Source: a virus
Virus record (IMG/VR): IMGVR_UViG_3300021091_000014
Coordinates: 1-64,000 of that record
Reading direction: 5' to 3' (one strand)
Length of the DNA: 64,000 bases
In this document: in pieces, positions 1-18,628 of the stretch
How the letters are laid out: the number at the start of each line of letters is the position of its first letter
How positions within the stretch are numbered: position 1 is the first letter of the stretch
Position numbers and translations under genes: made by a program
The notes under the pieces: generated by a model
Seen by the model: the letters and a program-made list of their open reading frames with translations, nothing else
Database searches by the model: none
What the model was told of the DNA's origin: nothing

Positions 1-1
1 G

Positions 2-4015: not shown

Positions 4016-4617
4016 TGCCAGCTATAACTCTATCATCTACAGGTCTACAATTTTCTTCTGGTTTAACTCAAACTACTAAACCAGTATATCTTCCCCCTTC
4101 TTCTGTCGGGACAAGTTATGGGGGAGGATATTATGTTGGAAGCTTATTTACTCTTGGTTTTGCTCGTCATTTAATAGTAGCAAGTTCTTCTGTTGAAACA
4201 ACTTCCACGTGGGGAGAAATGAGTACTGAAATTATTTTAAGAACAGGAATGGATGGCTATAATAATACTGAAAATTTAGTTAATGATGCAAGCCAAAATA
4301 ATAGAACATATGGAGCAGCTTCCTATTGCTGGAATCTTACTCATAATGGTTTCAGTGATTGGTATTTACCATCTATACATGAATTAATTTTACTTCATGC
4401 TGCTGCGTCTTTACTTCCAAATGGGCAGGAATTAACCGGTTCTTATTATTGGTCTTCTAATTATGGAGGCCCTGCTGGATCAACTTCGACCAATGCTCAC
4501 GCAATTAGATTATCAAGCAATCCTGACGCGGCGACTATAACAGGTATGCCTCAACAAGTTTTTTTAACGAGAAACTCCTCTGCTTCAGTAAGACCATTTA
4601 GAAATGTATCGATTTAA
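4015..4617 (+). CDS. DUF1566 protein, paralog 3
   Basis: YGGGYYVG, DGYNNT, DWYLPS, YWSS, VRPFR. Confidence 0.75.
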   Translation: MPAITLSSTGLQFSSGLTQTTKPVYLPPSSVGTSYGGGYYVGSLFTLGFARHLIVASSSVETTSTWGEMSTEIILRTGMDGYNNTENLVNDASQNNRTYGAASYCWNLTHNGFSDWYLPSIHELILLHAAASLLPNGQELTGSYYWSSNYGGPAGSTSTNAHAIRLSSNPDAATITGMPQQVFLTRNSSASVRPFRNVSI

Positions 4618-4627
4618 GGAAAAAAAA

Positions 4628-5101
4628 ATGAAATATGCAAAAGTAAGATTTATAGATTCTATTACAAAAATTCCGTCAAATGAAGCTCCCTGCAGGAATG
4701 GACCCATGCTTCCAGAATTGAATGGAATAAAAGTTCTTTTTGCAAATAAAGGTGACTGGCCTATTACTAGCGATGGACAGGACTATTATTTCGTAAGTTG
4801 TAATGATGATGCGGACCTATCTGCAAATGGAGTAATAGCGGTTTTGACTGAGCAGGAATTAAGCAATAGTAAAGTAGAAGAAGCGAATAAGTTAAGACCT
4901 AAAATGTTATTACAACTTAATGAAATTAAACAAAATGCAATTAATACCAAACAGCTTTATCTTGAGGATTTAACTCCTAAGCAGATAGCAAAATGGGATG
5001 CATATATTGCAGCAATTGATGCGGCTTCAGAGCACGAATTATTTCCCTGGGAAATTATCCTGGCCTCTCCCCGTCCAATGATAGACCCATCACTTATCTA
5101 A
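4628..5101 (+). CDS. putative tail-fibre assembly (Tfa-like) protein
   Basis: C-terminal KWDAYIAAIDA...FPW...P resembles Tfa chaperone ends; follows fibre-like genes. Confidence 0.45.
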   Translation: MKYAKVRFIDSITKIPSNEAPCRNGPMLPELNGIKVLFANKGDWPITSDGQDYYFVSCNDDADLSANGVIAVLTEQELSNSKVEEANKLRPKMLLQLNEIKQNAINTKQLYLEDLTPKQIAKWDAYIAAIDAASEHELFPWEIILASPRPMIDPSLI

Positions 5102-5163
5102 ATAAGAATCATTCTTAACTAGACCCACAGCTAGCTGTGGATAAAGACCACGGCTCCTCGTGG
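5101..5163. repeat. regulatory cassette copy 1: AATAAGAATCATTCTTAAC palindrome + CCACAGCTAGCTGTGG + CCACGGCTCCTCGTGG
   Basis: Same elements recur at 11062-11157 and, partly, 17245-17285. Confidence 0.85.
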
Positions 5164-5221
5164 ATACCTGAGCATTTTAGTAAGATACTTGTAACTTATT
5201 GATTTTAAAGGGGAAATTTAG

Positions 5222-5250
5222 TTGACATTTTTTCCCCCCTGTTGTACAAT
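5222..5250 (+). promoter_or_regulatory. early promoter TTGACA-17-TACAAT
   Basis: Near-consensus sigma70 promoter; IHF-like site TAACTTATTGATT at 5192-5204. Confidence 0.85.
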
Positions 5251-5278
5251 AAGAATTATGATGAATAAGGAGATTGCA

Positions 5279-6184
5279 ATGCAGAAGTCACTCGAGTGCG
5301 TTAACGGTAAATGGATTGGTAAGTTCAATGGTAAGGTTGTTGTTAAGACTTCCTCTAAGTACTACGCCGAGCGCAAGATGGCTGAGTACTACGAAGCTGA
5401 GGCGAAGGTTGCCGAAGTTAACAACAAGCTTAACGATGAGTTCCCTATCGACCAACGCTTTGACTTTGTAACCGATATCGTTAAGATGGTTGCCAGTCGC
5501 AAGACTCCCTCTGCTATCATTACCGGTGACGGAGGTCTAGGTAAGACCTACTCCGTAGTGAAAGCTCTCAAAGAGTCCGGGCTCCAGGACATGACTGAGT
5601 TTTTGTCCGAGTCTGACATCGGTGCTATCACGATGACCGATAAGATGTTTACGGTTATCAAAGGCTATTCTACCGCTAAGGCTCTCTATCGAGTGCTTTA
5701 TGAAAATCGTAACTCGGTAGTTGTGTTTGATGACTGTGATTCCGTTCTCAAAGATCCTGATGCATTAAACCTCCTCAAGGGTGCTCTTGACTCGTTTGAT
5801 AAACGATTCATCACCTGGAATGCTGAGATGCGTGATGATCAATTACCCCGGCTGTTCCAGTTCAAGGGTGGCATTATCTTTATCTCTAACATGTCACCTG
5901 AGCGCCTGGATCAAGCCCTGCGTACTCGTTCGATGTGTATGGATGTGTCAATGACTCTGGAGCAAAAAATCCAGCGTATGCGTACCATTATGCAGATGGA
6001 TGAGTTTCTCCCGCTAGTGCCTTATGAGTTCAAAGTAGATGCTCTAGCTGTGATCGATGAGTTTAAGGGTCAAGCAAAGGAAGTATCTCTTCGTTCGCTT
6101 ATCTCTACCGCCAAGATCCGTGCTAACGATAACGGGTCGGGTAATTGGAGAAAGCTTGCTAAGTACATGTTAATTGCAGCTTAG
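5279..6184 (+). CDS. AAA/P-loop ATPase
   Basis: Walker A GDGGLGKT, Walker B VVVFDDCD, sensor IFISN, arginine finger ALRTRS; start refined to ATG after AAGGAG. Confidence 0.85.
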   Translation: MQKSLECVNGKWIGKFNGKVVVKTSSKYYAERKMAEYYEAEAKVAEVNNKLNDEFPIDQRFDFVTDIVKMVASRKTPSAIITGDGGLGKTYSVVKALKESGLQDMTEFLSESDIGAITMTDKMFTVIKGYSTAKALYRVLYENRNSVVVFDDCDSVLKDPDALNLLKGALDSFDKRFITWNAEMRDDQLPRLFQFKGGIIFISNMSPERLDQALRTRSMCMDVSMTLEQKIQRMRTIMQMDEFLPLVPYEFKVDALAVIDEFKGQAKEVSLRSLISTAKIRANDNGSGNWRKLAKYMLIAA

Positions 6185-6200
6185 TAAGAAAGAGTTACAT

Positions 6201-6773
6201 ATGAGCTTTGATGTTACATGTATTATAATTGATAACTTTTATGCATACCCTGATAAGGTAAGAGAGTTTGCCTTAGAACAAAAGTTTGACGTTGAGGGTA
6301 ATTACCCCGGGCTTAGAACTAAGCCCTTCTTTACCGATCAAATAAAAGAATCAATAGAGCACGTTATGTCCTTTGCCGGCAAAATTACAAACACGTTTGG
6401 ATCAAGTGAAGATTCTGGCTACTGCGGGGCATTTCAAATAACCACAGCTAAAGATAGAACTTGGATTCATAGTGATCCGTTCAATATGTGGGCAGGAGTT
6501 TGTTACCTATCTCCTGATCCTCCTCTCTCAGGAGGAACCGGGCTGTTTAGATATAAAGAGACTGGTGAGAGTATTGATATCAATAAAGAGAATAAGTATA
6601 GCGGTCTTGATATAACAAAGTGGGAGATGGTAGATAGGATTGGTAACAAGTATAACCGTTTGGTAATTTACCGAGGCGATCTTTTTCATGCCAGTCTTGA
6701 TTACTTTGGAGACAATATTAATAACGGAAGACTCTTTCAAACGTTTTTCTTTGATACAGAAAAGCGAGTATGA
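6201..6773 (+). CDS. 2OG-Fe(II) oxygenase-like (DUF6445-like)
   Basis: IIDNFY..P..VR, YPGLRT, WIHSD, FHAS, RLFQTFF. Confidence 0.75.
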   Translation: MSFDVTCIIIDNFYAYPDKVREFALEQKFDVEGNYPGLRTKPFFTDQIKESIEHVMSFAGKITNTFGSSEDSGYCGAFQITTAKDRTWIHSDPFNMWAGVCYLSPDPPLSGGTGLFRYKETGESIDINKENKYSGLDITKWEMVDRIGNKYNRLVIYRGDLFHASLDYFGDNINNGRLFQTFFFDTEKRV

Positions 6774-7531
6774 CGTATAAAGTATGCCAGGCGATATTTT
6801 CAACTAATAGAATTGAATACCTCACTAAAACGCTCAATAGTCAAATCTTACTTGACTCCTCAGGATGTGAAGTAACAAAGATATTTTTTGATGATTATCC
6901 TACCGATCGAAATGATTTTCAAATAGAAAAGCTCGTAAGAAAATATGGTTACGAGCATGTTGTGCTGCATAAACGCAACGTCGGTATTACTAAAACCTGG
7001 CAGGAACTTTTTGACTTTGTGAAGAGATATGATTTTGATTACATATGGCATCAAGAAGATGATGTGCAATTACTTTACCGGGTACGCTTTATTGACCTCA
7101 TCGCCATACTCAAAGAAAATCCTAATATAAGTCAGGTTCAATTGAGAAGAGACAACTGGTATGAGTTTGAAACTGAACCTATTGGGCCAAGTGAGCACGA
7201 TCAAATTTGGAATCAGTATAGAATAGAAAGAAATAACCCTTACTTCTGGATGATGGCAAGCCTTTACCCGGCATGGATTGCTAAAGAGTTTGATAGATCC
7301 AAACACGAAGGTTATCCAAGTGAAGCTTCTATCGCCAATTTTATGTTTAAAAAGAATAATTCTTCTGTAGGGCTTCTGAAAACATTGGAGGGAGAGATAA
7401 TGATCAATCACTTTGGAGAATATTCAAGAGGTATAAGATCGGCCAAAGGAGACTTGGGGTGGGAGAAATTTAAAGATTATGACCCTTCCCTTAACTATTA
7501 CTCCCGTTCCGGTAAAATATTTAATCAATAA
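6770..7531 (+). CDS. glycosyltransferase (GT-A fold, GT2-like)
   Basis: NRIEYL..TL, FFDD, YIWHQEDD, HFG motifs. Confidence 0.75.
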   Translation: MTYKVCQAIFSTNRIEYLTKTLNSQILLDSSGCEVTKIFFDDYPTDRNDFQIEKLVRKYGYEHVVLHKRNVGITKTWQELFDFVKRYDFDYIWHQEDDVQLLYRVRFIDLIAILKENPNISQVQLRRDNWYEFETEPIGPSEHDQIWNQYRIERNNPYFWMMASLYPAWIAKEFDRSKHEGYPSEASIANFMFKKNNSSVGLLKTLEGEIMINHFGEYSRGIRSAKGDLGWEKFKDYDPSLNYYSRSGKIFNQ

Positions 7532-7675
7532 TAACTATGTCCTGGGTATTGATTTTCTACACTGTAACTGGTAAAATTGATGTACATGAATTCAAGCATG
7601 TCCGAGATTGTAATTACGTAATGATGATATATTATCATTCCCCCTATAAATTTAACTTTAGATGTGAGTATAGAC

Positions 7676-8020
7676 ATGGAAAAGAACAATGAAAGTATCA
7701 AGCATGATAATGACGATCTTAGCAGCGATAGGGATGCTATTTGTGCTAATACCGGGTATAGGTATTCTACTTGGCCTTTTGATGCAGATGATAAAGGGTT
7801 TGATGGGATGAAAGTATCCGGCAATGACGTGACATTGGATTGGGAGACTTCCGATCGCATTACAGTGTGCACACTTAAACACCACCTTGAAATGATTTAC
7901 GAAAAAGAGACAAACCATAAAGTGTTTGCCGAGTGGTATCATGAAGATGATAAAGAGTATGATCGTAAATTAAAGAAAGCTCTCAAACGGGTATTAAGGT
8001 ACTTTGGTGAGGAAGAATAA
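7676..8020 (+). CDS. hypothetical protein
   Basis: ORF coupled to the next gene. Confidence 0.65.
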   Translation: MEKNNESIKHDNDDLSSDRDAICANTGYRYSTWPFDADDKGFDGMKVSGNDVTLDWETSDRITVCTLKHHLEMIYEKETNHKVFAEWYHEDDKEYDRKLKKALKRVLRYFGEEE

Positions 8021-8364
8021 TGCAAAAAATAGTCATCAATACAGACTACGGCGGCTTTGGCCTTTCTGAAAAGGCAACTGAACTTTTATTTAAATTAAAA
8101 AAATGGAAGTTTATTAAACACAACACCTCCTCTGACTTTACCCTATACTACAAAGACTGCATCGGAGAAGACAATCTTTTTGAAGAGCGAGACTTAAAGC
8201 GTGATGATCCCGAACTTATTGAGGTGGTAAAGACTCTCAAAAAAAAAGCCAATGGACAATATGCCAACCTTAAAATCGTATCTGTTCCGGATGATGTAAA
8301 GTGGTTCATTCAGGAACATGATGGATGTGAGTGGGTGGCGGAAGAACATAGAGTGTGGGAATGA
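8020..8364 (+). CDS. conserved phage protein (VINxxYGGFGLS...RDDP.L...EHDG.E)
   Basis: Recognisable widespread phage hypothetical motif. Confidence 0.8.
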   Translation: MQKIVINTDYGGFGLSEKATELLFKLKKWKFIKHNTSSDFTLYYKDCIGEDNLFEERDLKRDDPELIEVVKTLKKKANGQYANLKIVSVPDDVKWFIQEHDGCEWVAEEHRVWE

Positions 8365-8606
8365 AAGCATGGCGTGAGACGGAATTTTTTTCCTTTTATT
8401 TCTACAATGAAAAGGATGGAAAGATCATAGGGTGTGTCCATAGACTTGGGACTCAGAACGTCATATATACTGCTAAAATATACAATGACATTCATGAACG
8501 AGTCCTTGGTCTGTACATCGATGCCTCTCATGCCAGGAAAGCAGTAGAGAGTTTTTGGATGATGGAAGAAAACACACTCACCTACGAAAATAACACAATC
8601 CCATGA
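8361..8606 (+). CDS. hypothetical protein
   Basis: ORF overlapping the previous stop (ATGA). Confidence 0.65.
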   Translation: MKAWRETEFFSFYFYNEKDGKIIGCVHRLGTQNVIYTAKIYNDIHERVLGLYIDASHARKAVESFWMMEENTLTYENNTIP

Positions 8607-8785
8607 GTAATGTGGTCCAATTTCCAACCTATCAGTATGTGGCCGTGTGCCCGATGTGTGGGGGAAGTAATTGGATTATATTGATGTCAAAGGCCCAACC
8701 CCCTAATCAAAAAATAGTGGAGATAGAGTGTTGTAATTGTTCAGCCATTATGATATTAGATGAGATAGAGGTTGAAAAGAAGTAA
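8603..8785 (+). CDS. small zinc-ribbon protein
   Basis: CPMC...CCNC. Confidence 0.6.
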   Translation: MSNVVQFPTYQYVAVCPMCGGSNWIILMSKAQPPNQKIVEIECCNCSAIMILDEIEVEKK

Positions 8786-8788
8786 ACA

Positions 8789-8944
8789 ATGAACGAAGAA
8801 GACTTAGTATACCGTTTACGCAAACGAGCAGAGATTAGGAGACAGATTCCAACCCGCAAGTCTGTAAAGGAAGGAAAGCCAGACCGTATTGCCGATCTTT
8901 TGGAAGAGGCCGCTGATGAAATAGAAAGGTTGAGAAATAAATAG
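8789..8944 (+). CDS. small phage protein (LRKRAEIRRQI..RKSV.EG.PDRIADLLEEAA), not in ORF track
   Basis: 51-aa ORF read by hand; recognisable phage motif. Confidence 0.7.
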   Translation: MNEEDLVYRLRKRAEIRRQIPTRKSVKEGKPDRIADLLEEAADEIERLRNK

Positions 8945-9022
8945 AAGAGAGAAGAATCGTGGCGATAACTAACTCTATGGCCGAAGGCCATCCCCATGCC
9001 CACGACCTAAGGAAATAACAAA

Positions 9023-9340
9023 ATGAAACACGTAATAATGCTATTTTTACTTCTTCTACCATTAAAATCGTATGGGCAGTGGGAGGGGGCAATGTTGTCC
9101 ATGACGTGTGGTCCTTTACAGGATATTTTGAATATTGTGATGGGAAAGAACTTCAATGAATATCCTTATTGGACAGGTATCAATAAACAGGATGGAGTGA
9201 ATGTGGTGATGTTTGTAAATGAAAAGACACAGAGTTGGACACTAGTACATATAGAGGAGAGGTCAAAATTGTCGTGTGTGATAGGGGTAGGTAGGGGGTA
9301 TTGGGTAAAGGAAGATAAGAATAAGAATAATTCTTATTAA
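9023..9340 (+). CDS. exported protein with signal peptide
   Basis: Hydrophobic N-terminus; N..T.SWTLV...C motif; AAGGA SD. Confidence 0.7.
   Translation: MKHVIMLFLLLLPLKSYGQWEGAMLSMTCGPLQDILNIVMGKNFNEYPYWTGINKQDGVNVVMFVNEKTQSWTLVHIEERSKLSCVIGVGRGYWVKEDKNKNNSY
9320..9338. promoter_or_regulatory. 9-1-9 palindrome AATAAGAATAATTCTTATT (Fur-box-like)
   Basis: Perfect inverted repeat; same motif at 5101, 9799, 11062, 17245. Confidence 0.7.
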
Positions 9341-9341
9341 A

Positions 9342-9572
9342 ATGACAAAGAAGAAAACAATTATGATGCGATATTTTAATATATTTTTTAGTCTCGCCCC
9401 GGCACCGGTATTTTTTATAGGGGCATTATTAAGTTATTTTTATTCACATCATGGTATAGAAATGCCGTTAATGTGGATAGTAATGTGTATGGCCCATATA
9501 AGCCCGTGGTTGATGTGGTGGCAACAGAGAGCTTTTCAAAAATTCCAAACTCTTCCAGACAAACAGCAGTGA
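9342..9572 (+). CDS. small membrane protein
   Basis: Two hydrophobic segments. Confidence 0.65.
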   Translation: MTKKKTIMMRYFNIFFSLAPAPVFFIGALLSYFYSHHGIEMPLMWIVMCMAHISPWLMWWQQRAFQKFQTLPDKQQ

Positions 9573-9784
9573 TAGTGTCCGTTGATTACAGCCACTATAT
9601 CACGATATAAGTCCCACAACCGTTCGGGGTACTGTTCGTAGTAGCCGTTGGTAATGTAGCCTATATCATAAGCACGTACAGTACCAACCGGTCCACGAAT
9701 ATACATCCAAGTAACTGGCCCATGGTCACTGTTACTTACCACGTCTTGAGCGAACCCTAGATGATCTATTTCTATCCATTCCAT
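9536..9784 (-). CDS. hypothetical protein (possible lone minus-strand gene)
   Basis: 82-aa ORF in a gap with no + strand ORF; TTTAAATA late-like box upstream on the minus strand. Confidence 0.5.
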   Translation of the reverse strand: MEWIEIDHLGFAQDVVSNSDHGPVTWMYIRGPVGTVRAYDIGYITNGYYEQYPERLWDLYRDIVAVINGHYHCCLSGRVWNF

Positions 9785-9798
9785 CTAATATATATTTA

Positions 9799-9817
9799 AA
9801 TAAGAATTATTCTTATT
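9799..9817. promoter_or_regulatory. 9-1-9 palindrome AATAAGAATTATTCTTATT (Fur-box-like)
   Basis: Perfect inverted repeat in intergenic DNA. Confidence 0.7.
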
Positions 9818-9954
9818 AAAGTAATAGCCTGGAGATAATGTGTTTGTGTGGGGTAGAGTTAGCATAGGGAGACGCGTTTATGCCCGTATGCCTCCCAGAA
9901 AACAATACCGGGTATACCTTACTAAAGTGTACGGAGATAACAGGGATTCCGCAG

Positions 9955-9983
9955 TTGATTTTAATTCCGTAAACCGTCATAAT
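9955..9983 (+). promoter_or_regulatory. early promoter TTGATT-17-CATAAT
   Basis: Nearly the same sequence as the promoter at 643. Confidence 0.75.
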
Positions 9984-10009
9984 TAGTGTATAGTGAATAA
10001 GGAGATTGA

Positions 10010-10180
10010 ATGATGGGGTTATTAGAGATTCTAAATGTGTTGTTGATTGGGTGGTTTGTGGGCTTTGTATCGTTTGCCTTTATTGATTGCTTTATGATTT
10101 CCCGCCGTATTCGGAAAGACCGTGAGCGGACGGATATGGAAATCGCTCGTATCAAAGCCGCACGTTCCGTAACGCGTTGA
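10010..10180 (+). CDS. small membrane protein, not in ORF track
   Basis: 56-aa ORF (MMGLLEILNVLLIGWFVG...) after AAGGAGA SD. Confidence 0.65.
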   Translation: MMGLLEILNVLLIGWFVGFVSFAFIDCFMISRRIRKDRERTDMEIARIKAARSVTR

Positions 10181-10205
10181 TCTTAATTAAGTAATAGCCT
10201 ACAAT
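10177..10205 (+). promoter_or_regulatory. early promoter TTGATC-17-TACAAT
   Basis: Spacing and consensus; ATG 6 nt downstream of the -10 suggests a leaderless mRNA. Confidence 0.65.
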
Positions 10206-10211
10206 TATATT

Positions 10212-10658
10212 ATGATTAAAGTATTAAAGCCAACAGATGAGTTTGACCAAGACCTGAAAGCCAGAGGTCTTCGTCGGACTCAGGAATTAGCCGATATCGT
10301 GGCAAGTGATACCGGTAAAAAAGACGCCGAGGGGAATCCGATCTATACCTTTGGCGGGGTGTATCGTCAGAAGATCGTTCCTATTGATAATGAAGTACCA
10401 CTTGTGAAGAAGAAAAGAGGAGCTGCTAGAATGAATGTTGAGCAAAATGTAGTAAAGGCCAAAGGTGCCGTGTATACCTTTAAGAAAGCCCCCCGTGAGG
10501 GTAGCAAGCTTTCAACCGCCGTTGGAATCGTTGGTGCCACCGGTAAAGATGATAAACCGGCCTGTATTAATGCCATTGCCACCACCATGGGTGTAACCAA
10601 GGGCAATGCCTCAATCTACTACGCCAAAGCCAAAGCCCTGATTGAGGCTGGCCTGTAA
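10212..10658 (+). CDS. early protein with C-terminal HTH-like motif (MGVTKGNASIYY)
   Basis: Motif shared with 17353 and 57478 ORFs. Confidence 0.7.
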   Translation: MIKVLKPTDEFDQDLKARGLRRTQELADIVASDTGKKDAEGNPIYTFGGVYRQKIVPIDNEVPLVKKKRGAARMNVEQNVVKAKGAVYTFKKAPREGSKLSTAVGIVGATGKDDKPACINAIATTMGVTKGNASIYYAKAKALIEAGL

Positions 10659-10699
10659 TTAGATTTAGATGGGGGAGGGGCGGTGATCCGCCTACTCTT

Positions 10700-11058
10700 A
10701 AACAACAGCAACTCGTCGGGAGACGCTCGGTGTGCCCCTTATAGATGACGCTTTTTTGGGGAAGTGGCGAGAGACCATTTGTGGATTGCGCCTACTTTTA
10801 AACGACTATGTGAAGTGCCCCTTACATAAACTCGTTGGCTCATCACCAACTAGTGTGACCCGCATGAAGGAAGTGGACTGATAATCCACGGGTGGTTCTG
10901 GTAGAAAGACCTACTACGGTGACGTAGTAGCCCAAACCTACCACATCGAAAGATGCCGTCTAACCGAACGGGCGTTGGCAATACGAGAATCTCCATAGTG
11001 GGCGAGTGGATGGAAGGCGAAAGCTATAGTTACCACGGCTATGGAGAAGCACCCTATT
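10700..11058 (+). ncRNA. candidate large structured non-coding RNA
   Basis: ORF-free, GC-richer segment with many stems and several GNRA tetraloops; boundaries approximate. Confidence 0.65.
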
Positions 11059-11061
11059 ACG

Positions 11062-11157
11062 AATAAGACTTATTCTTATCTCCAGGACCGCGGCCTAGCT
11101 ATCTCCTATCATCAAACCCCACAGCTAGCCGTGGTCCACCCCCACGGCTCCTCGTGG
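11062..11157. repeat. regulatory cassette copy 2: AATAAGACTTATTCTTATC + CCACAGCTAGCCGTGG + CCACGGCTCCTCGTGG
   Basis: Matches the 5101-5163 cassette. Confidence 0.85.
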
Positions 11158-11168
11158 TTTTTTGATAG

Positions 11169-11197
11169 TTGATTTTATTTCCTAAGAATTAGATAAT
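11169..11197 (+). promoter_or_regulatory. early promoter TTGATT-17-GATAAT
   Basis: Consensus and spacing. Confidence 0.7.
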
Positions 11198-11227
11198 TGA
11201 TGTATGATGAATAAAAAGGAGATATCA

Positions 11228-11545
11228 ATGAAGTTCACGAAATACGCCATCTACCAGCTTCCCTTTGAGAATGAGAATTCTCGGGATCTGTCGTTCATGA
11301 GTGCCTATCAGGTCCAAGAAATCAGTGATCAGTTCGAATTTGTAGCGATAATTGAAGCCCACTCCCTAGACCACGTCTTTCTGATTTCCAATTCTCCTAG
11401 TGGTGAGTTTGAAACCCTGATTGATCGAGTGCAGCCGATGCATTCCTTGTCCGTAGGTGACATTGTTCATAACCTCGATACGGATGAGACGTACGTAGTA
11501 GCAAACTATGGATGGTCAAAAATCGACATGAAGGAGTCTGTATAA
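11228..11545 (+). CDS. YodL-like domain protein
   Basis: YAIYQL...LDHVF..SN...HSLSVGDIV signature. Confidence 0.7.
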   Translation: MKFTKYAIYQLPFENENSRDLSFMSAYQVQEISDQFEFVAIIEAHSLDHVFLISNSPSGEFETLIDRVQPMHSLSVGDIVHNLDTDETYVVANYGWSKIDMKESV

Positions 11546-11775
11546 TGGTAACGATGCAGGATTTGTTGCAAAAAGTGCTTTCTCTGCCCCCTAGTGATTT
11601 AAAACTCATTGGTGAGTCATTGGCCTGGTATAGTCCTTCTCAGGCCGAAACCCTGAAGAACGCTATCTCATTTGCCCAGCAGGAATTAGATAGTATGGAA
11701 ATGAGAGAGCAGCAATATGAGGAGGCCTCTAGAATGGCCGATATGGATTGTATACAGTATGGAGAACGTGTATAA
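11545..11775 (+). CDS. hypothetical protein
   Basis: TAATG coupling, AAGGAG SD. Confidence 0.65.
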   Translation: MVTMQDLLQKVLSLPPSDLKLIGESLAWYSPSQAETLKNAISFAQQELDSMEMREQQYEEASRMADMDCIQYGERV

Positions 11776-12023
11776 TGAAAGAATTAATTAAATCATTAAG
11801 ACAGCCCATGTTTGCCTCTAGAGATAGTATTGAGGAGGCGTATGATTATATGCAGATGGTAGCCAATGCTACTGATAATCCAATGGCTGTTATCACAGCA
11901 TGCCAGGTACTAGTCAATACTATATGTAATGAATTAGAGAAGATCATACAGGCTGTAGAAGAAGATACTAGCAATCCATATAGAGAATTAGAAGCTATCG
12001 TTGGGATGTGGGCTCGTGAGTAA
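11775..12023 (+). CDS. hypothetical protein
   Basis: TAATG coupling, GGAG SD. Confidence 0.65.
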   Translation: MKELIKSLRQPMFASRDSIEEAYDYMQMVANATDNPMAVITACQVLVNTICNELEKIIQAVEEDTSNPYRELEAIVGMWARE

Positions 12024-12253
12024 ATTTATATTGGGGGTGATTATTGGATGGTTTCTCACCTCCATTAATTTCTGGCCATTTTTACTGGGATTTATACAGG
12101 GGGTGGTCAATGGGTGAGAGCCCCCGTTCGGTTCTAGTTTGGTGAAGTACTACCTTGCTGTATGGGTTATGGGCGCGTTCGAGTGGGTTCGGTTTTGCAT
12201 CCTAAAAAACCAGACCCCCCGATTCCAAAAATTTTTCCCGCGCCAAACCCCCC

Positions 12254-12282
12254 TTGAAAGTCCCAATCATATACTATACAAT
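12254..12282 (+). promoter_or_regulatory. early promoter TTGAAA-17-TACAAT
   Basis: Consensus and spacing; AAGGAG SD downstream. Confidence 0.65.
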
Positions 12283-12305
12283 ACTACATTATAAGGAGTA
12301 TAACT

Positions 12306-12428
12306 ATGACTGATAATAAACTTAAAAAGACTCAATTGCCTACGCGTTTGGTGAATAAGCCGGTCCCTAAACCTAAACCGGCTCCTATGAAAAAGGTCAT
12401 CCAGCGTACCTCCGGGCGAGGGCGATAG
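12306..12428 (+). CDS. 40-aa basic K/P/R-rich peptide, not in ORF track
   Basis: MTDNKLKK...QRTSGRGR; strong SD. Confidence 0.6.
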   Translation: MTDNKLKKTQLPTRLVNKPVPKPKPAPMKKVIQRTSGRGR

Positions 12429-12968
12429 ATGTTAAATGAAACGTTTTTAACCCCGGTACTGTATAAACATGGCAAGAGGGTGGAGTTGTTGGAAAGGATG
12501 CTTAATTCTAAACCATCAGAACAATGGATGGATGTGCCAGCGCCCGGTAAAAAGGTTGCCGTAAGGCCCATCACTACAGAATTGTTTAGTGATGATTTAA
12601 AAGACATGCTCAATGCATGTAGGTGGGCCAATGAGGAGTGGTTTGGATATGATGTGTTTGAGCGTTTACCCGTCACCATGAACCTTAACACCTACGGTGT
12701 AGGGGATGAATATGCCATGCATGTGGATTTCAAGTCCAAAGGTTCACCGGCGGCGGCCAAGTTAACATGCATTCTCAACCTCTCAACCGAACCATATGAG
12801 GGTGGGGAGTTTGAAATCTATTGGGAAGGAAAGGTGAAGACATTAGATTCATTCATGCCCGGGCATTTGTTGGTGTTTCCATCCTTTATTCATCATAGAG
12901 TGACACCTATCAAAGAAGGCACCAGACATTCATTGACATTGTGGCTTTCGGGACCGGCCTGGAAGTAA
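12429..12968 (+). CDS. 2OG-Fe(II) oxygenase (PKHD/P4H-like)
   Basis: HVD, KLT, YEGGEF, FPSF..HRVTP, R.SL..W. Confidence 0.85.
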   Translation: MLNETFLTPVLYKHGKRVELLERMLNSKPSEQWMDVPAPGKKVAVRPITTELFSDDLKDMLNACRWANEEWFGYDVFERLPVTMNLNTYGVGDEYAMHVDFKSKGSPAAAKLTCILNLSTEPYEGGEFEIYWEGKVKTLDSFMPGHLLVFPSFIHHRVTPIKEGTRHSLTLWLSGPAWK

Positions 12969-13010
12969 TTTTTTAAATGTATTATAATGGTAGTGTAAAG
13001 GAGAATTGTA

Positions 13011-13268
13011 ATGGTAATGACTAAAGAAAATGAGATTTTATCTATTTTACAAGAAGAGTGTGCCGAAGTAATTCAGGCCATTTCCAAGGTTCGGAGGTTT
13101 GGAAAAGAAAACAACGTAGCTGGTCTATGCCAGGAGATTGCCGATTGTGAATACTTAATCAAATTAGCCAAACTAAACATTCCCGAAATAAATCAGTACA
13201 ATTTTGGATTAGCCGAACAACGCAAGCACGAAAAACTAAGGGTGTATTCAAACTTATTTAAAGATTAA
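13011..13268 (+). CDS. MazG-like NTP pyrophosphohydrolase
   Basis: ILQEECAEVIQAISK...EIAD. Confidence 0.7.
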   Translation: MVMTKENEILSILQEECAEVIQAISKVRRFGKENNVAGLCQEIADCEYLIKLAKLNIPEINQYNFGLAEQRKHEKLRVYSNLFKD

Positions 13269-13302
13269 ACTTCTGGCCCCGTCTCCTTCGGAGAGGATGT
13301 AG

Positions 13303-13917
13303 ATGCTATTTAAAAACAACGTTAGCCCGGATTGGTCCTACCCCCTTGGACCGATGGATGCACTTACCAGTGTGATTTTTTCCAAAGACATCTTTGATCA
13401 AAAAGATTTGGAATTGATTGAGGAGGCATCTACGTGGTTTAAATCCAAGCCCGGAAAAGTAGATGAGAAGAACGAAGTCAATTTAAATGTTAGAAATGCC
13501 GAGATAACGTTCTTTAAGTACAAAGAGTCCCTCAAGCCCATTTATGATAAGCTTGCCGAATGCATCCACTACCACAACGACCTGTATTTTAGGTTTAGAA
13601 TTGGATTTATAGAAATTCTACAATATACTGAATATAAAGAAGGATGCTTTTATGACTGGCACCCCGATTGTATTCAAAAAAACTACAACATATTCTACGA
13701 ACAGAGAAAGATATCCATTACTATTCAATTGAGTGATGCATCAGAATATGAGGGTGGGGAGTTGGAATTCTGGCACCCCACCACCCCCCGCACAGCCCCA
13801 AAGGAAAAGGGAACCGTAATTATGTTTCCTTCTTATTATTATCATAGAGTAAAGCCAGTGACCAAGGGCAAAAGAGTTTCTTTAGTATCATGGATTAACG
13901 GTCCAGACTTTTGTTAG
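13303..13917 (+). CDS. 2OG-Fe(II) oxygenase (PKHD-type)
   Basis: LQYTEY, WHPD, RKISITIQL, YEGGEL, HRVKPV, RVSLVSW. Confidence 0.9.
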   Translation: MLFKNNVSPDWSYPLGPMDALTSVIFSKDIFDQKDLELIEEASTWFKSKPGKVDEKNEVNLNVRNAEITFFKYKESLKPIYDKLAECIHYHNDLYFRFRIGFIEILQYTEYKEGCFYDWHPDCIQKNYNIFYEQRKISITIQLSDASEYEGGELEFWHPTTPRTAPKEKGTVIMFPSYYYHRVKPVTKGKRVSLVSWINGPDFC

Positions 13918-13924
13918 GTGAAAA

Positions 13925-14110
13925 ATGATTAAAGTAAAATTTAAGTATAAAGATCATCCTTACTCAAACCTCTTTAAATTTTTTTCCGATAGTGAAAAAG
14001 CGCTAAAGTATTGTGACGATATAAAAGAACATTGTGACATTTTGGACGTCTACGACGTAGATACAAATGAGTCATTTTGGATTAAGGATAAAAAATTGCT
14101 TGTTGAGTGA
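13925..14110 (+). CDS. hypothetical protein
   Basis: 61-aa ORF. Confidence 0.55.
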   Translation: MIKVKFKYKDHPYSNLFKFFSDSEKALKYCDDIKEHCDILDVYDVDTNESFWIKDKKLLVE

Positions 14111-14243
14111 TTTTATTATAATAGTTGATTGGTAATAAAGTTTAGTATATTATTAATGGAAAGTCCTAGCCTGATAACGGAACCCGCTACCCATCGGTAA
14201 CTATGGACCGTTTATGGATGACGATTTAAAAAAGGAAAATTAC

Positions 14244-14471
14244 ATGAAAAAAACAGTTGCAATTCTAACAGCATTAATGTTCACAATGCCTGTTTTTGCT
14301 CAAACAAAACCAGCAGAAAAAAAAGAAGAAGCAAAGGGGGCGGTAAAACAACCTCCTCCCCCAAACATTCCTGAGCCAAAGCATGCTACCAAGCCTGCTG
14401 AAAAGAAAGATGTCAAGCCTGCAGCCAAACCAGCTGACAAGCCAGCAGAAAAGAAAGAAGCAAAGAAGTAA
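14244..14471 (+). CDS. exported K/P/A-rich low-complexity protein
   Basis: Signal peptide ending VFA; KPAEKK repeats; AAGGA SD. Confidence 0.7.
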   Translation: MKKTVAILTALMFTMPVFAQTKPAEKKEEAKGAVKQPPPPNIPEPKHATKPAEKKDVKPAAKPADKPAEKKEAKK

Positions 14472-14483
14472 TAAATAGTTTTA

Positions 14484-14770
14484 TGATCGTATGAAGTAGA
14501 TCAAAAGGTGTTCTGGACGGGGGTGCAAATCCCCCCACCTCCACCAAAAGGAACTTGATGCATCAGGTTTTTTTTGATGGGGGTGACTAGTTTCGACAGG
14601 GCAATGAGTAGAGAAATGGACGATCCGGCAATGTGAAAGCCGTTAGGGTTGAGACTTCTCGGCCAAAGAAACAAAACGTTAAACGCAAACGACGAAAGAT
14701 TTGCACTGGCAGCCTAAACGCTGACCGGAGTTTTTACCTGTTTTCCTTGGCAACAGAAAAAACAGGTTCC
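14484..14770 (+). ncRNA. ssrA: circularly permuted (two-piece) tmRNA, tag (A)ANDERFALAA
   Basis: T-arm and CACCTCCACCA end at 14546 precede the 5' end GGGGGTG at 14579; the acceptor stem pairs with G3:U70; tag ORF 14685-14717; hairpin and U-tract ~14737-14777. Confidence 0.92.
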
Positions 14771-14787
14771 ATTTTTTAGAGGACAAA

Positions 14788-15318
14788 ATGACCTATACCG
14801 AACTAACAGTATTTGAAAGGGAATTAACATTAAACTATTCCCCTCTTACAACCTACCTTTCATTAAAAAATATTAACCGATTGCATAAGTGGCACCCGTA
14901 TTTTTATTTTAGTGATCCCGGTCCCCATCTGTTAGAGAATACCTATATTGATTACTATCAGCAACCTCACAACTACAACTATGTTATCGTAACTAATTTC
15001 TTTAACATGCTTGATGGGGATATATTCTTTAGAAAGCTCACTTTTCTTCACCGCGCTATTGGAGAAAACTTCTCAGTATCTAGGAATAAATTGGATCTTG
15101 AATTTGATTATGTTGAAGATAATGAAGAGGCTACAAAAATAAACGTTGTTAGAAGACTAATTGTTTCTGGAAACCCTGACTCAGTTGAAAATCAAAACAG
15201 TATTAGCAATGCATATGATAGGACAGATTTAATTTTTAGAACAATACAGGAACTAGAACCATTTGGTAACGACGGGCTTCTTTGCTATAAAAATAAACCG
15301 GCCGGGCCGCAGCGGTAG
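14788..15318 (+). CDS. hypothetical protein
   Basis: 176-aa ORF, GAGGA SD. Confidence 0.65.
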   Translation: MTYTELTVFERELTLNYSPLTTYLSLKNINRLHKWHPYFYFSDPGPHLLENTYIDYYQQPHNYNYVIVTNFFNMLDGDIFFRKLTFLHRAIGENFSVSRNKLDLEFDYVEDNEEATKINVVRRLIVSGNPDSVENQNSISNAYDRTDLIFRTIQELEPFGNDGLLCYKNKPAGPQR

Positions 15319-15344
15319 ATTATAGCATGATGTAACTTTTCGTT

Positions 15345-15866
15345 ATGGATAAAACAATACAGACCTTTTTTATTAATAAAGAGCTTTTACATGAGACTAA
15401 AAAATTTCTTTTAAAATGTGTTGCTTTAAAAGAACATTTAGAATTATCTAAGGTCACAACAAGAAATGGTACTCAAACAGTAAATATAGTAAATTTTATT
15501 GATGAGGAGCTCCTGTCAGAAATTTATAAAGTAGCGTCAAACTATATTGACCAATATTATTATAATAACCTACTGTTCTGTGACTTTAATATTGACCACA
15601 TGCATCTTATAAAGTATGATACCGGTGGATACCAGAGAACACACAACCATCAAACCTCAGACGATCACTCATTTATCTTATATTTAAATAGTAGTGATGG
15701 AGGAACAGCTTTTTACAACGACGTTACACCTACCGTAATTACTCCTGAAGAAGGTAAAATTGTATTTTTTAGTAGTTCAATTAATCATGAAGCATTACAG
15801 TGTACAAATGAAAAGCAGGTAGCAGTTGGTAGGCTAAGATTTGTACATAAGGTCTGGTCAAAATAA
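15345..15866 (+). CDS. 2OG-Fe(II) oxygenase-like
   Basis: Y..GGYQ..HNH, SFILYLN, GGT.F, P.EGKIVFF, HEA. Confidence 0.7.
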   Translation: MDKTIQTFFINKELLHETKKFLLKCVALKEHLELSKVTTRNGTQTVNIVNFIDEELLSEIYKVASNYIDQYYYNNLLFCDFNIDHMHLIKYDTGGYQRTHNHQTSDDHSFILYLNSSDGGTAFYNDVTPTVITPEEGKIVFFSSSINHEALQCTNEKQVAVGRLRFVHKVWSK

Positions 15867-15876
15867 ACTGAGATTG

Positions 15877-15950
15877 GCCCTGTTAGTATAATGGTATTAC
15901 AGTGGATTTGTAATCCTCTAATGGCAGTTCAATTCTGTCACAGGGCACCA
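15877..15950 (+). tRNA. tRNA-Thr(TGT)
   Basis: GCCCTGT/ACAGGGC acceptor stem, loop TTTGTAA, encoded CCA. Confidence 0.9.
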
Positions 15951-15963
15951 TTAGGAGATTGTT

Positions 15964-16146
15964 ATGATTAAATACGTATTAATTATTTGGTTAGGAACTA
16001 TAGATAATTTTGCCGACTACGCAGAATTTTATTCGTACAAGGAATGTGAGGAGAAAAGAGCACAGGTTTTAAGAGCTCTTATTCAAGCACAATCTCAAAT
16101 GAATCTTACATGCAGGATCAGATATACAATGGAGGAAAAAAGATGA
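15964..16146 (+). CDS. hypothetical protein
   Basis: AGGAGA SD; two Cys. Confidence 0.6.
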   Translation: MIKYVLIIWLGTIDNFADYAEFYSYKECEEKRAQVLRALIQAQSQMNLTCRIRYTMEEKR

Positions 16147-16346
16147 GCGATGGAGGAAAAGGATCTTCTCCAAGACCACTCTCAGTAGACTTAGAAACGT
16201 TTGACAATAACTGGAATATGATTTTTAAGAAAAATAAGTGGGATCATTATAGTGATCTTCCCAACCCGGATGCATATAGTAACGATTATCAGGATATTTT
16301 GTCTACGGAAGATTGTGTTTTAGATGCGCTTGAAAAGAAACAATAA
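16143..16346 (+). CDS. small phage protein (MSDGGKGSSPRP)
   Basis: GGAGG SD; recognisable phage motif. Confidence 0.65.
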   Translation: MSDGGKGSSPRPLSVDLETFDNNWNMIFKKNKWDHYSDLPNPDAYSNDYQDILSTEDCVLDALEKKQ

Positions 16347-16358
16347 ATATTTTTACGG

Positions 16359-16387
16359 TTGAAGTAATTATCCGCTGTAGCTATAAT
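16359..16387 (+). promoter_or_regulatory. promoter TTGAAG-17-TATAAT for the tRNA cluster
   Basis: Consensus -10, 9 nt before tRNA-Arg. Confidence 0.7.
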
Positions 16388-16396
16388 CATAAGTAT

Positions 16397-16472
16397 CTGA
16401 CTGTAGCTCAGTGGATAGAGCAACAGCCTTCTAAGCTGTGGGGCGCAGGTTCGATCCCTGCCAGTCAGGCCA
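16397..16472 (+). tRNA. tRNA-Arg(TCT)
   Basis: CTGACTG/CAGTCAG stem, loop CTTCTAA, TTCGA T-loop, CCA. Confidence 0.95.
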
Positions 16473-16493
16473 TTTTTTAAATTAGGAGAAGTC

Positions 16494-16718
16494 ATGGAAA
16501 TTTTAATTCTTGCAGTTGTAGCTGTTGTCATCGGTGGTTGGATTTACATTCAATACAACAAAAAGGCCATTGATACTAACAAAGATGGAAAGGTCGATGC
16601 TGCTGAGGTAAAGGCTGCTGTTACAGCTGAGGTAAAAGAAGTAGCTAAGAAAGCTACTGCTAAAGCTAAGGTTGTTAAAGAAAAAGTATCTGCTGCTAAG
16701 AAAACCGCAAAGAAATAA
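16494..16718 (+). CDS. membrane-anchored protein with EF-hand-like loop and K/A-rich tail
   Basis: N-terminal TM; DTNKDGKVDAAE. Confidence 0.7.
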   Translation: MEILILAVVAVVIGGWIYIQYNKKAIDTNKDGKVDAAEVKAAVTAEVKEVAKKATAKAKVVKEKVSAAKKTAKK

Positions 16719-16724
16719 TCTTTT

Positions 16725-16809
16725 GCGGTTGTGGTGGAATTGGTAGACACAGCAGACTTAAAATCTGCCGGCGATAGCCGTGCCGGTTCGAGTCCGGCCT
16801 CCCGCACCA
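16725..16809 (+). tRNA. tRNA-Leu(TAA), two acceptor-stem mismatches
   Basis: GCAGA-CTTAAAA-TCTGC anticodon arm, long variable arm, CCA. Confidence 0.9.
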
Positions 16810-16902
16810 ATATTTTATTATGTTAATAATTATATCAAGATTTCTAGCTCTGGCCTTCTGCGTAAGCTTTTGGGTAGGTGTATTTTATTATTTTTTTTAT
16901 TA

Positions 16903-16979
16903 GGGCCCGTAGCTCAGCTGGTCAGAGCAGGCGACTCATAATCGCTTGGTCAGGGGTTCAAGTCCCTTCGGGCCTACCA
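16903..16979 (+). tRNA. tRNA-Ile2(CAT) (lysidine type)
   Basis: GGCGACTCATAATCGCT anticodon arm matches E. coli-type tRNA-Ile2; CCA. Confidence 0.88.
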
Positions 16980-17035
16980 TATAAATATATTTGACCGAGA
17001 GGTCACCACACACACAAACACAGAAAGGAAATATC

Positions 17036-17245
17036 ATGACAGCAAAAACTCCATACGAAATCCGTTTAGAGCTTATCAAGCTTGCCCAGGATCAACTCAA
17101 CCAGCGTTACTTTACCAATTGGGATGCTATTCGTTCCAACGCCGATCGTAATAATCAAACCATTACCGAAGTTCCGGAATTTCCTAATACTCAGCAGATA
17201 TTAATGGAAGCCGAAAAACTCAAGGCCTTTGTAGATAAAGCGTAA
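17036..17245 (+). CDS. small phage protein (KTPYEIRLEL...AEKL..FV)
   Basis: Late promoter TATAAATA 16980-16987; AAGGA SD. Confidence 0.75.
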   Translation: MTAKTPYEIRLELIKLAQDQLNQRYFTNWDAIRSNADRNNQTITEVPEFPNTQQILMEAEKLKAFVDKA

Positions 17246-17294
17246 ATAAGAATCATTCTTATTTGAAGACCACAGCTAGCTGTGGTCTTTTTTT
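17245..17294. repeat. regulatory cassette copy 3: AATAAGAATCATTCTTATT + AAGACCACAGCTAGCTGTGGTCTT + T-tract (also terminator-like)
   Basis: Matches the first two elements of copies 1 and 2. Confidence 0.85.
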
Positions 17295-17298
17295 GTAG

Positions 17299-17327
17299 TT
17301 GATTTATTTTCCTGACGAGAATATAAT
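17299..17327 (+). promoter_or_regulatory. early promoter TTGATT-17-TATAAT
   Basis: Consensus. Confidence 0.8.
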
Positions 17328-17352
17328 ATATGTTCTAACTAAGGAGATTGTT

Positions 17353-17631
17353 ATGACAAATTTAGAAAGAGTTACTAACTTACTTAAGAATCGTAAAATT
17401 CTTACTAAAACGGAACGTAAGCAGGCAATAGATCTAATAGCTAGCACCCTAGGAGTCTCACGCTCTAATGCTGCAGTCTATCTCAGCAAAGTACAAAAAC
17501 TTTTTCTACCTACAGTAGTTTTTCAAGAAAATAAAATTCAAAAAGAAGAAATAGTTCAAGAGTTAGGAATCACTAACGAGCGAATAGCTTCCATTATGGA
17601 AAAATCAAACAACTTTGTTGTTACTTTGTAG
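17353..17631 (+). CDS. early protein with HTH-like motif (LGVSRSNAAVYL)
   Basis: AAGGAGA SD; motif shared with 10212 and 57478 ORFs. Confidence 0.7.
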   Translation: MTNLERVTNLLKNRKILTKTERKQAIDLIASTLGVSRSNAAVYLSKVQKLFLPTVVFQENKIQKEEIVQELGITNERIASIMEKSNNFVVTL

Positions 17632-17660
17632 TTGATTTATTTTTGTCAAGAGAATAAAAT
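17632..17660 (+). promoter_or_regulatory. early promoter TTGATT-17-TAAAAT
   Basis: Consensus and spacing. Confidence 0.7.
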
Positions 17661-17690
17661 ATACTTACATTAACTGAAAAGGAGTATGTT

Positions 17691-18623
17691 ATGGCACACG
17701 AAATAGAAACGATGGCTTACGCCGGCGAAGTACCCTGGCACGGACTTGGTGTTCCGGTTCCAGCAGACCTTTCACCTGAGCAATTTCTTAGGAAAGCTGA
17801 CCTTAATTGGGAAGTGCAAAAGATTCCTTGTTATGCTGAAATTGATGGTGAGAAGGTATTTGTAGGTAAGTCAGCTTTGACCCGCTCTACAGATAACAAA
17901 ATTCTTGATGTTGTTTCCACTGATTGGAACCCGGTTCAGAATTCTGAAGCATTTCAATTCTTTGATGAGTATTGCCGGGTAGGTGATATGGAAATGCATA
18001 CAGCTGGCTCTCTTAAAGGAGGTCAGATTGTATGGGTACTTGCCAAGCTTAAGGACTCGTTTGATATTTTTAATGGAGACACTATTGATGGATATCTTTT
18101 ATTCTCAAACCCTCATAAATTTGGCCAGTCTATTGACGTCCGCTTCACCCCTATTCGTGTGGTGTGCAATAACACTCTCACATTAAGTCTGGAATCTAAA
18201 TCGGACAACTACGTTAAGGTTAACCATAAGAAAGTGTTTAACGCTGACGAAGTCAAGGAGACTCTTGGTATCGCCACCCATAAGCTGGCCAAGTACAAAG
18301 AGATGGCTAAGTTCCTAGGGTCCAAGCGCTATAAGCAGGACAAAGTCAAAGACTACTTTAAGGAAATCTTCCCGGCTATGTCTGGCAAGGATAAGGAAAT
18401 GTCTCGAGCTGCCAATAAAGCACTTGACGTTCTTGTTAAGCAGCCTGGCGCTAACTTTGCCGAAGGATCTTGGTGGCAGCCGTTTAACGCCGTAACGTAT
18501 ATGACGGATCACTTAGTTGGTCGCTCCGTTGATACACGCCTTACTTCGGCCTGGTACGGCTCCAATCGCGGGCTTAAGATCAAGGCGCTTGAAAAAGCGG
18601 TTGAGTACGCTGAAGCGGCTTAA
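17691..18623 (+). CDS. DUF932/DUF945 family protein
   Basis: MAHE..MAY.G..PWHGLG, TAGSL.GG, TPIRVVCNNTL. Confidence 0.9.
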   Translation: MAHEIETMAYAGEVPWHGLGVPVPADLSPEQFLRKADLNWEVQKIPCYAEIDGEKVFVGKSALTRSTDNKILDVVSTDWNPVQNSEAFQFFDEYCRVGDMEMHTAGSLKGGQIVWVLAKLKDSFDIFNGDTIDGYLLFSNPHKFGQSIDVRFTPIRVVCNNTLTLSLESKSDNYVKVNHKKVFNADEVKETLGIATHKLAKYKEMAKFLGSKRYKQDKVKDYFKEIFPAMSGKDKEMSRAANKALDVLVKQPGANFAEGSWWQPFNAVTYMTDHLVGRSVDTRLTSAWYGSNRGLKIKALEKAVEYAEAA

Positions 18624-18628
18624 GGAGA

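Follow-up and report, generated by a model that had tools for sequence, protein, structure and literature searches.

The stretch of DNA analysed here comprises positions 1-64,000 of the IMG/VR record IMGVR_UViG_3300021091_000014; this whole 64-kb stretch is called the window. It is the first part of the 156,637-bp genome of a phage denoted G0, in which short repeated cassettes of palindromes, stem-loops and promoter-like sequence lie between small early genes. We consider these to be probably terminator-promoter cassettes of the promoter-early stem-loop (PeSL) type. G0 encodes the T4-type major capsid protein Gp23 (E = 2e-149) and, as judged from its genome, is an uncultured T4-like freshwater phage; its nearest cultured relatives are the Methylophilales phages Melnitz, in the family Kyanoviridae. 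For comparison, five related phage contigs were used, including the two closest in IMG/VR (G001 and G002), together with a few metagenome fragments (L-numbered, e.g. L025 and L028).

The ends of the G0 genome are contiguous, as an open reading frame (ORF) spanning them matches an uninterrupted stretch of a relative. From ~148 kb across the ends to 20 kb nearly all genes are small and on the plus strand, and because syntenic homologues in G001 or G002 are missing for most of the 69 ORFs in this stretch, it is regarded as a hyperplastic early region. Four cassettes cluster within it, between 154.8 kb and 17.3 kb.

The cassettes are assembled from portable modules without a fixed grammar, namely P, H1, H2, H3, a promoter and a leader. 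P is an AT-rich 7-5-7 palindrome, within which the TAA stop codon of the upstream ORF lies in most cassettes, and H1 (CCACAGCTAGCYGTGG) and H2 (CCACGGCTCCTCGTGG) are 16-nt stem-loop palindromes. The orders observed are:

Cassette 1: stop/P, 5 nt, H1, 7 nt, H2, H3, conserved 20-mer, promoter, leader, ATG
Cassette 2: P, 38 nt, H1, 7 nt, H2, T6, promoter, leader, ATG
Cassette 3: stop/P, 6 nt, extended H1, T7, promoter, ATG
Cassette 4 (genome position 154846, outside the window): H3, H1, T5, promoter, leader, ATG

The features within the window, with promoters as predicted, are:

5101..5119, plus strand: P of cassette 1 (AATAAGAATCATTCTTAAC), overlapping the TAA stop of ORF 4604-5101
5125..5163, plus strand: H1 (5125-5140), linker ATAAAGA and H2 (5148-5163), with no T-run after them
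5165..5210, plus strand: H3, degenerate in G0 and intact in relatives, and the conserved 20-mer TAACTYATTGATTTTAAAG (alignments A2 and A3)
5222..5281, plus strand: early promoter TTGACA-17-TACAAT (5222-5250), leader ATGATGAATAAGGAGAT and start codon at 5279
9320..9338, no strand assigned: solo P closing ORF 9023-9340, with the next ATG 3 nt further on
9799..9817, no strand assigned: solo P in an ORF-poor stretch, 155 nt before a promoter at 9955
11062..11080, plus strand: P of cassette 2 (AATAAGACTTATTCTTATC); a 24-nt patch (P and flanks) also occurs in the copy-1 cassette of G002
11119..11163, plus strand: H1 variant (11119-11134), linker TCCACCC, H2 (11142-11157) and a T6 run
11169..11230, plus strand: early promoter TTGATT-17-GATAAT (11169-11197), leader ATGATGAATAAAAAGGAGAT and start codon at 11228
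17245..17263, plus strand: P of cassette 3, a perfect palindrome, overlapping the TAA stop of ORF 16991-17245
17265..17294, plus strand: extended H1 hairpin (11 bp, -15.7 kcal/mol) and T7; the 16-mer is identical in G001
17299..17355, plus strand: early promoter TTGATT-17-TATAAT (17299-17327), Shine-Dalgarno site and start codon at 17353

An earlier note on the window had described the first three of these loci, and re-reading confirmed their positions and sequences. It had also proposed a fixed three-part grammar, which does not hold, as the modules vary in order and number both between the copies and among the five related contigs; H3, for example, stands after the H units in cassette 1 and before them in cassette 4. 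Extending the motif search to the full genome, as the note had suggested, added the fourth cassette, with its differing order (H3, H1, T5, promoter).

The repeats far exceed chance. The pattern CCAC-N8-GTGG has five matches in the window where 0.28 are expected, a count reached in 0 of 100 shuffles; these are the starts of H1 at 5125, 11119 and 17270, and of H2 at 5148 and 11142. A sixth H unit, the H1 of cassette 4, lies 1.8 kb ahead of the window start across the genome ends. Every H copy is placed between a stop codon and an early sigma70-type promoter, and the palindrome generalises to CCACRG-N4-CYGTGG (16 nt). P, allowing up to three mismatches, has six matches against 0.26 expected in the window, with copies in the cassettes at 5101, 11062 and 17245 and solo copies at 9320 and 9799 that the earlier note did not list. 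Both solo copies are perfect palindromes without H units; the first codes for the last residues of ORF 9023-9340, and the second lies 15 nt upstream of a possible minus-strand ORF (9536-9784).

All four cassettes carry predicted promoters (TTGACA/TTGATT-17-TACAAT/GATAAT/TATAAT/CATAAT), identified by sequence match only. The extended -35 consensus TAGTTGATTTNATTTCC has eight matches in the window against 1.96 expected, and ~12 early-type promoters share the extended consensus GTAGTTGATTTaATTTCC...ATAAT. AT-rich tracts (T5-T7 runs) lie upstream of the -35 box, and a conserved leader of the form (A)TGATGAATAAGGAGAT...ATG, with a Shine-Dalgarno site, lies downstream. The last hairpin is 9-13 nt from the -35 box, or 58 nt in cassette 1; for cassettes 2-4 of G0 the gap is 10-13 nt, and the hairpins of the four cassettes have predicted energies of about -6 to -20 kcal/mol. 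The leader ATGATGAATAAGGAGAT follows many of the ~12 promoters and begins at the predicted transcription start, ~7 nt past the -10 box (5258-5278, 11204-11227 and genome position 154907). Transcripts may accordingly begin AUGAUG, and the leader AUG shares its frame with the annotated start in cassettes 1 and 2. The leader 16-mer also follows TTGACA-type promoters in several other IMG/VR contigs. Another early-type promoter, at 16359-16387, stands directly before tRNA-Arg in a cluster of four tRNA genes (Thr, Arg, Leu and Met; 15877-16979).

Mosaic joints and orthologous cassettes

Homology breakpoints coincide with the edges of these elements; the earlier note had proposed a test of whether the cassettes mark points of gene gain and loss. 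Between G0 and G002, homology ends at 2590 and resumes exactly at 5101, the first base of P; with G001 and G004 it picks up again at 5164, immediately past H2. A four-gene, 2.5-kb block (2591-5100), three genes of which are paralogues, is absent from both G001 and G002. The paralogues stand in tandem at 2757-4617 (~200-213 aa, motif GYSDWYLPS, with a fourth copy at 38668), and the next gene, 4604-5101, completes the block, which ends exactly at P.

Different genes are found beside the same modules. Three different genes adjoin P in G0, in G002 and in G001/L025, and in G002 the P of the copy-1 cassette, with its flanks, equals the P of G0 cassette 2 over 24 nt, not the orthologous P of cassette 1. 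A cassette of P, H1, H2, H3, the 20-mer and the promoter stands before a phrog_1250 gene in G0 and before another gene in G005, and the gene behind the P-H1-H2-H3 cassette of G005 is found in G004 behind an array of three H units. The gene behind cassette 4 lies in G001 inside an operon without any cassette, and nearly every gene in the early region varies between relatives. The short modules are shared by many gene boundaries, so that recombination between copies could account for the gain, loss and re-pairing of genes; a gene joined by a crossover in P would still end correctly because P supplies the TAA stop.

Alignments A2 and A3 compare the copy-1 locus (that of cassette 1) in seven genomes. 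Conservation extends over P, H3, the 20-mer, both promoter boxes (-35 and -10) and the leader, and is lowest in the H1/H2 stretch. Both units are intact in G0 and both are decayed, with pair-breaking changes, in G002. L028 has an H1 with two G-U-compatible changes and, past an 8-nt linker, a different weak hairpin. H1 and H2 are absent from G001 and L025, the latter having an unrelated hairpin (TGTGAAATTCACA) at the H2 position, and G003 and G004 have one hairpin with the same stem and another loop (CCACAGAGCTCTGTGG), which in G003 takes the place of H2. In these alignments a hairpin at the site tends to persist, and its sequence does not.

The other cassettes are preserved to differing degrees. 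G0 and G001 share ~94% identity over cassette 3 and 77% over its coding flanks; ten homologues of the gene behind this cassette were found. The H1 of cassette 4 is identical in G002 and matches at 15/16 positions in G005, with a T-run in G0 only, and the module upstream of it is H3 in G0 and G002 and P in G005. At the position of cassette 2, G001 has an H2-like unit with another loop, followed by an A-run.

Further afield the elements are rare. H1, H2 and P were all not found in Melnitz, and a near-identity DNA search of a phage collection returned tRNA matches only. In IMG/VR, exact H1 matched only two close relatives and exact H2 had four matches; the tandem-H1 pattern was found in G004 only, its other matches being ordinary long hairpins. 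The 15-mer CTAACTCATTGATTT gave only chance matches among the matches listed, and a longer pattern found G005. No H arrays were found in 185,579 bacterial species genomes, and the 40 single H1 matches there are scattered and unrelated; H1 is thus not a repeat of the host.

Two other features of the window may be added. The stretch 10659-11061, which adjoins the P of cassette 2 on its left, is ORF-free, GC-richer and apparently structured, and had no Rfam matches at E <= 0.1. Positions 10839-10991 have a counterpart of 79% identity in G001, located elsewhere, among tRNA genes; a 16-mer from the stretch, with its tail, recurs in G005 ~520 nt upstream of a P-H1-H2 cassette, and an H-like half unit (ACCACGGCTA) at the 3' end of the stretch is complementary to the H1 arm of cassette 2. 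At 14433-14771 lies a permuted (two-piece) tmRNA (Rfam tmRNA_permuted, 130 bits; beta_tmRNA, 100 bits), with the tag peptide ANDERFALAA as read by ARAGORN, which is conserved in part in G001 (76% identity). The permuted tmRNA matches hint at a betaproteobacterial host.

The 23-nt register of the H units

In both cassettes with two H units these start 23 bp apart (5125/5148 and 11119/11142), as the earlier note had pointed out, and relatives, searched without fixing the spacing between units, show the same: the offset is 23 nt in 5/5 intact pairs from G0, G004 and G005. G004 has three tandem H1-like 16-mers with starts 23 + 23 nt apart and 7-nt linkers (L112 1501-1562 = G004:C1:3756-3817), directly upstream of GTTGAC-17-TATAAT, and the P-H1-H2-H3 cassette of G005 also has the 23-nt offset. 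Spacers between the other modules vary (4-38 and 0-15 nt).

The note had taken the two linkers of G0 to be unrelated, and the constant spacing to point to phased sites of protein binding. The linkers of G0 do differ at 6/7 positions, with the rest of the 39-nt unit differing at 1/32, but linkers form two families common to several phages. In the first, TCCACCC of G0 cassette 2 matches TCGACCC of G004 at 6/7 positions. The second is purine-rich and includes ATAAAGA (G0 cassette 1), ATAGAGA (G002), GGAAAAC (G005), GGGAAATA (L028) and GATAGAA (G004). The G004 linkers match both families on the antisense strand only, and on these two 7-nt matches the G004 array seems to be inverted relative to its promoter.

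The simplest account of the constant register, from these comparisons, is that the pairs are tandem 23-nt units derived from a common ancestral array, not that they are helically phased; linker length would then be equal because the linkers descend from shared families. Two different ancestral linkers would have survived in different cassettes, and at divergences of this order indels within 7 nt would be rare. The similarity of the 16-mers within G0 would be explained by selection acting on the stems or by repeated exchange from cassette to cassette. An RNA reason for the linker length was also considered and ruled out: the predicted stability of the fold is flat for linkers of 4-20 nt, and so RNA folding does not demand exactly 7 nt.

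Hairpins, termination and rival readings

On its own, H1 has a predicted folding energy of -7.3 kcal/mol and H2 of -6.1 kcal/mol; the extended H1 of cassette 3 forms an 11-bp stem at -15.7 kcal/mol. In cassettes 1 and 2 the minimum-energy fold of H1 with H2 is one long interrupted hairpin of 14 bp, looped by the 7-nt linker and formed by pairing between the 3' arm of H1 and the 5' arm of H2; its energy varies with the flanks included, from -16.7 to -18.2 kcal/mol in cassette 1 and from -18.8 to -19.8 kcal/mol in cassette 2. The same long hairpin is predicted for the first two units of G004. In three of the four G0 cassettes (2, 3 and 4) the GC stem is followed by T6, T7 and T5, respectively, and these cassettes look like intrinsic terminators from their sequence; the T-run directly after the hairpin is also present in cassette 3 of G001. 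A terminator scan of positions 1-20000 ranked the cassette 3 site first. An attenuator switch was considered and discarded, as both alternative folds put a stem before the T-run.

Together, the repeats, predicted folds, T-runs, promoter consensus, module shuffling and coincident breakpoints point to termination, promoter activity and recombination as functions of the cassettes, and we think it probable, on this sequence evidence, that they are PeSL-type terminator-promoter cassettes in a hyperplastic early region. Each would combine P and one to three GC-rich 16-nt stem-loops, in some cases also H3, with an A/T tract, an early promoter of the host sigma70 type and a leader containing a Shine-Dalgarno site. 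Read-through from the gene upstream would be halted or attenuated by the hairpins in the RNA, which would also cap the 3' end of its message, with two adjacent units able to pair into one long hairpin looped by the 7-nt linker. The promoter would then restart transcription, so that each small gene becomes an insulated unit, and recombination between the short recurring modules would add, delete and re-pair genes.

Several observations weigh against this account. There is no T-run after the H units in cassette 1 of G0, copy 4 of G002, G005b or copy 2 of G001; lacking it, these are not canonical intrinsic terminators, and H1 is nonetheless nearly unchanged. Only four of the ~12 early-type promoters have H units. 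The five intact H-H linkers are uniformly 7 nt long, and yet RNA stability is flat over 4-20 nt. The stems are kept by sequence rather than by covariation, with H1 identical at 15-16 of 16 positions and flanks at 70-77%; H3 likewise shows only two compensatory pairs, not above shuffles. On the sense strand, G-U outnumber A-C changes by ~10:5, which leans to RNA and is not significant (hand count).

Some of these points would fit a different reading, in which a sequence-specific dimeric protein, of phage or host, binds the 16-bp palindromes as DNA sites arrayed in a fixed 23-bp register; such a protein could be a recombination helper for cassette exchange, a transcription factor or an insulator. 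The stem sequence itself, and not pairing alone, is conserved across five phages, the CTAG centre is kept in H1-type units, and H1 is kept without a T-run in several orthologues. The 7-bp linker is constant in the five intact pairs where other spacers vary, and the arrays seem to work in either orientation. The layout is also like that of the operators of phage lambda, which are three 17-bp palindromes with 6-7-bp spacers. Nevertheless, we regard this reading as unlikely. The H units leave the promoter core free, being placed upstream of the -35 box, and the variable distance to that box (9-13 nt, or 58) leaves no fixed helical face, 23 bp itself being ~2.2 helical turns. The copy-1 promoter can do without H1 and H2, which G001 and L025 lack and which are decayed in G002, and most early promoters have no units. 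The spacing follows from descent, as the linkers are homologous, and no candidate binding protein was identified. The proposal of phased protein-binding sites rather than terminators, made in the earlier note, is thus not upheld, given the linker families, the loss of H1/H2, the 9-13 nt distances, the apparently inverted array, the T-runs and the shuffling of modules.

Arbiol et al. speculated that PeSL stems might bind a recombination protein (PMC2839356). The corresponding proposal for G0 is that the 16-bp palindromes, which are almost unchanged between phages with genes of only ~70% identity and always stand in a 23-bp register, would be recognition sites of a dedicated protein that catalyses or guides cassette exchange, or insulates the cassettes, with P as a stop-codon-carrying left joint; we hold this to be distinctly unlikely. 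If true, the protein would be the 'helper' that the PeSL authors speculated on and never found. A Fur-type operator was considered for P and rejected, as the centre of P lies ~80-180 nt upstream of the predicted starts, which is not operator-like.

It is improbable that the H units are instead a small selfish or passively spreading palindromic repeat, similar to repetitive extragenic palindromes (REPs) and the bacterial interspersed mosaic elements (BIMEs), with little function of its own and spreading by slippage and recombination in either orientation. Tandem 23-nt units of palindrome plus short linker, in either orientation and present or absent at orthologous sites, would be expected of such a repeat, and it would be lineage-specific, as the absence from Melnitz and the lack of arrays in the bacterial genomes indicate. 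However, the genome of 157 kb has just six units, each of them in the early region between a stop codon and an early promoter, and the ~94% identity of cassette 3 next to coding flanks at 77% argues for selection. A RAYT/Y1 transposase was not found, with no PF01797 matches in G0 in a search whose controls matched.

The hairpins have last been considered as RNA processing or stability elements, the H1+H2 duplex being an RNase III-type cleavage site or a 3' cap, which is very improbable, as is the related idea that a polycistronic early transcript is cut at them into stable single-gene messages: the long interrupted 14-bp duplex, the hairpins without T-runs at cassette 1 and several orthologues, and the known early RNase III sites of T7 and intercistronic hairpins of T4 would favour such a role, but the duplex is shorter than typical RNase III substrates, the single units with clear T-runs in cassettes 3 and 4 resemble plain terminators, the cassette loci have no Rfam matches, and no trans-acting RNA guide was found in the nearby ncRNA-like region or the tmRNA, complementarity being at chance level except for one local 10-mer.

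Comparison with known systems

Cassettes 2, 3 and 4 resemble intrinsic terminators in having an A-tract, then a GC-rich hairpin and directly after it a T-run. Cassette 1 and several orthologous copies lack the T-run, however, and G0 reuses one stem sequence where ordinary terminators each have their own. The likeness to lambda operators lies in palindromes of 16-17 bp, repeated two to three times with 7-bp spacers next to a promoter. In lambda a known repressor binds them and they extend over the -35 and -10 boxes, whereas the G0 units lie upstream at variable distance and are lost in orthologues. REPs and BIMEs are also short GC-rich palindromes located 3' of genes in intergenic DNA; they cluster in either orientation, with short linkers of fixed length, and can form larger hairpins and attenuate transcription or stabilise mRNA. 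They differ in having hundreds of copies to the few of G0 and in lying on host chromosomes rather than in a phage; in G0 no RAYT was found and the units always accompany an early promoter.

PeSLs are known from the T4-type phages RB49/phi1, T4/PST and KVP40/nt-1, and consist of one or more stem-loops, an AT-rich tract, a sigma70-like early promoter and a Shine-Dalgarno site with ATG (PMC2839356, PMC4122927). They have lineage-specific stem consensus sequences, cluster in hyperplastic regions, are located at indels and include degraded forms with multiple stem-loops (PMC2839356, PMC4122927). In the cyanophage S-PM2, also of the Kyanoviridae, they were judged too sparse to explain gene gains (PMC4503421).

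There are differences from these published examples. The known PeSLs are from phages of enterobacteria and vibrios, and G0 is an uncultured freshwater phage near Melnitz. The 16-nt stem-loop of the G0 type also occurs in tandem arrays with a 23-nt period, and G0 has an extra module at the left end, P, with the stop codon of the upstream gene; neither the tandem arrays nor a stop-codon-carrying P is mentioned in PMC2839356 or PMC4122927. Stem-loops stand at only four of the ~12 early promoters of G0. The functional features of PeSLs are termination, promoter strength and the formation of mini-circles; those of the G0 cassettes are putative.

The analogy drawn in the earlier note nevertheless stands, as the cassettes share with PeSLs all of the features that can be read from sequence: the composite build, a shared stem consensus, the hyperplastic setting, the position at indel and replacement junctions, and degraded or multi-stem forms. 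The tandem 23-nt arrays and P offer a concrete test of plain homologous recombination against a site-specific factor, and the joints at 5101 and 5164 are a clean example of recombination joints on the edges of short regulatory modules. The repeat units are, on this comparison, a new example of the known PeSL kind and not a new regulatory grammar, which would extend PeSL-type modular gene shuffling to an uncultured freshwater lineage near Melnitz in the Kyanoviridae.

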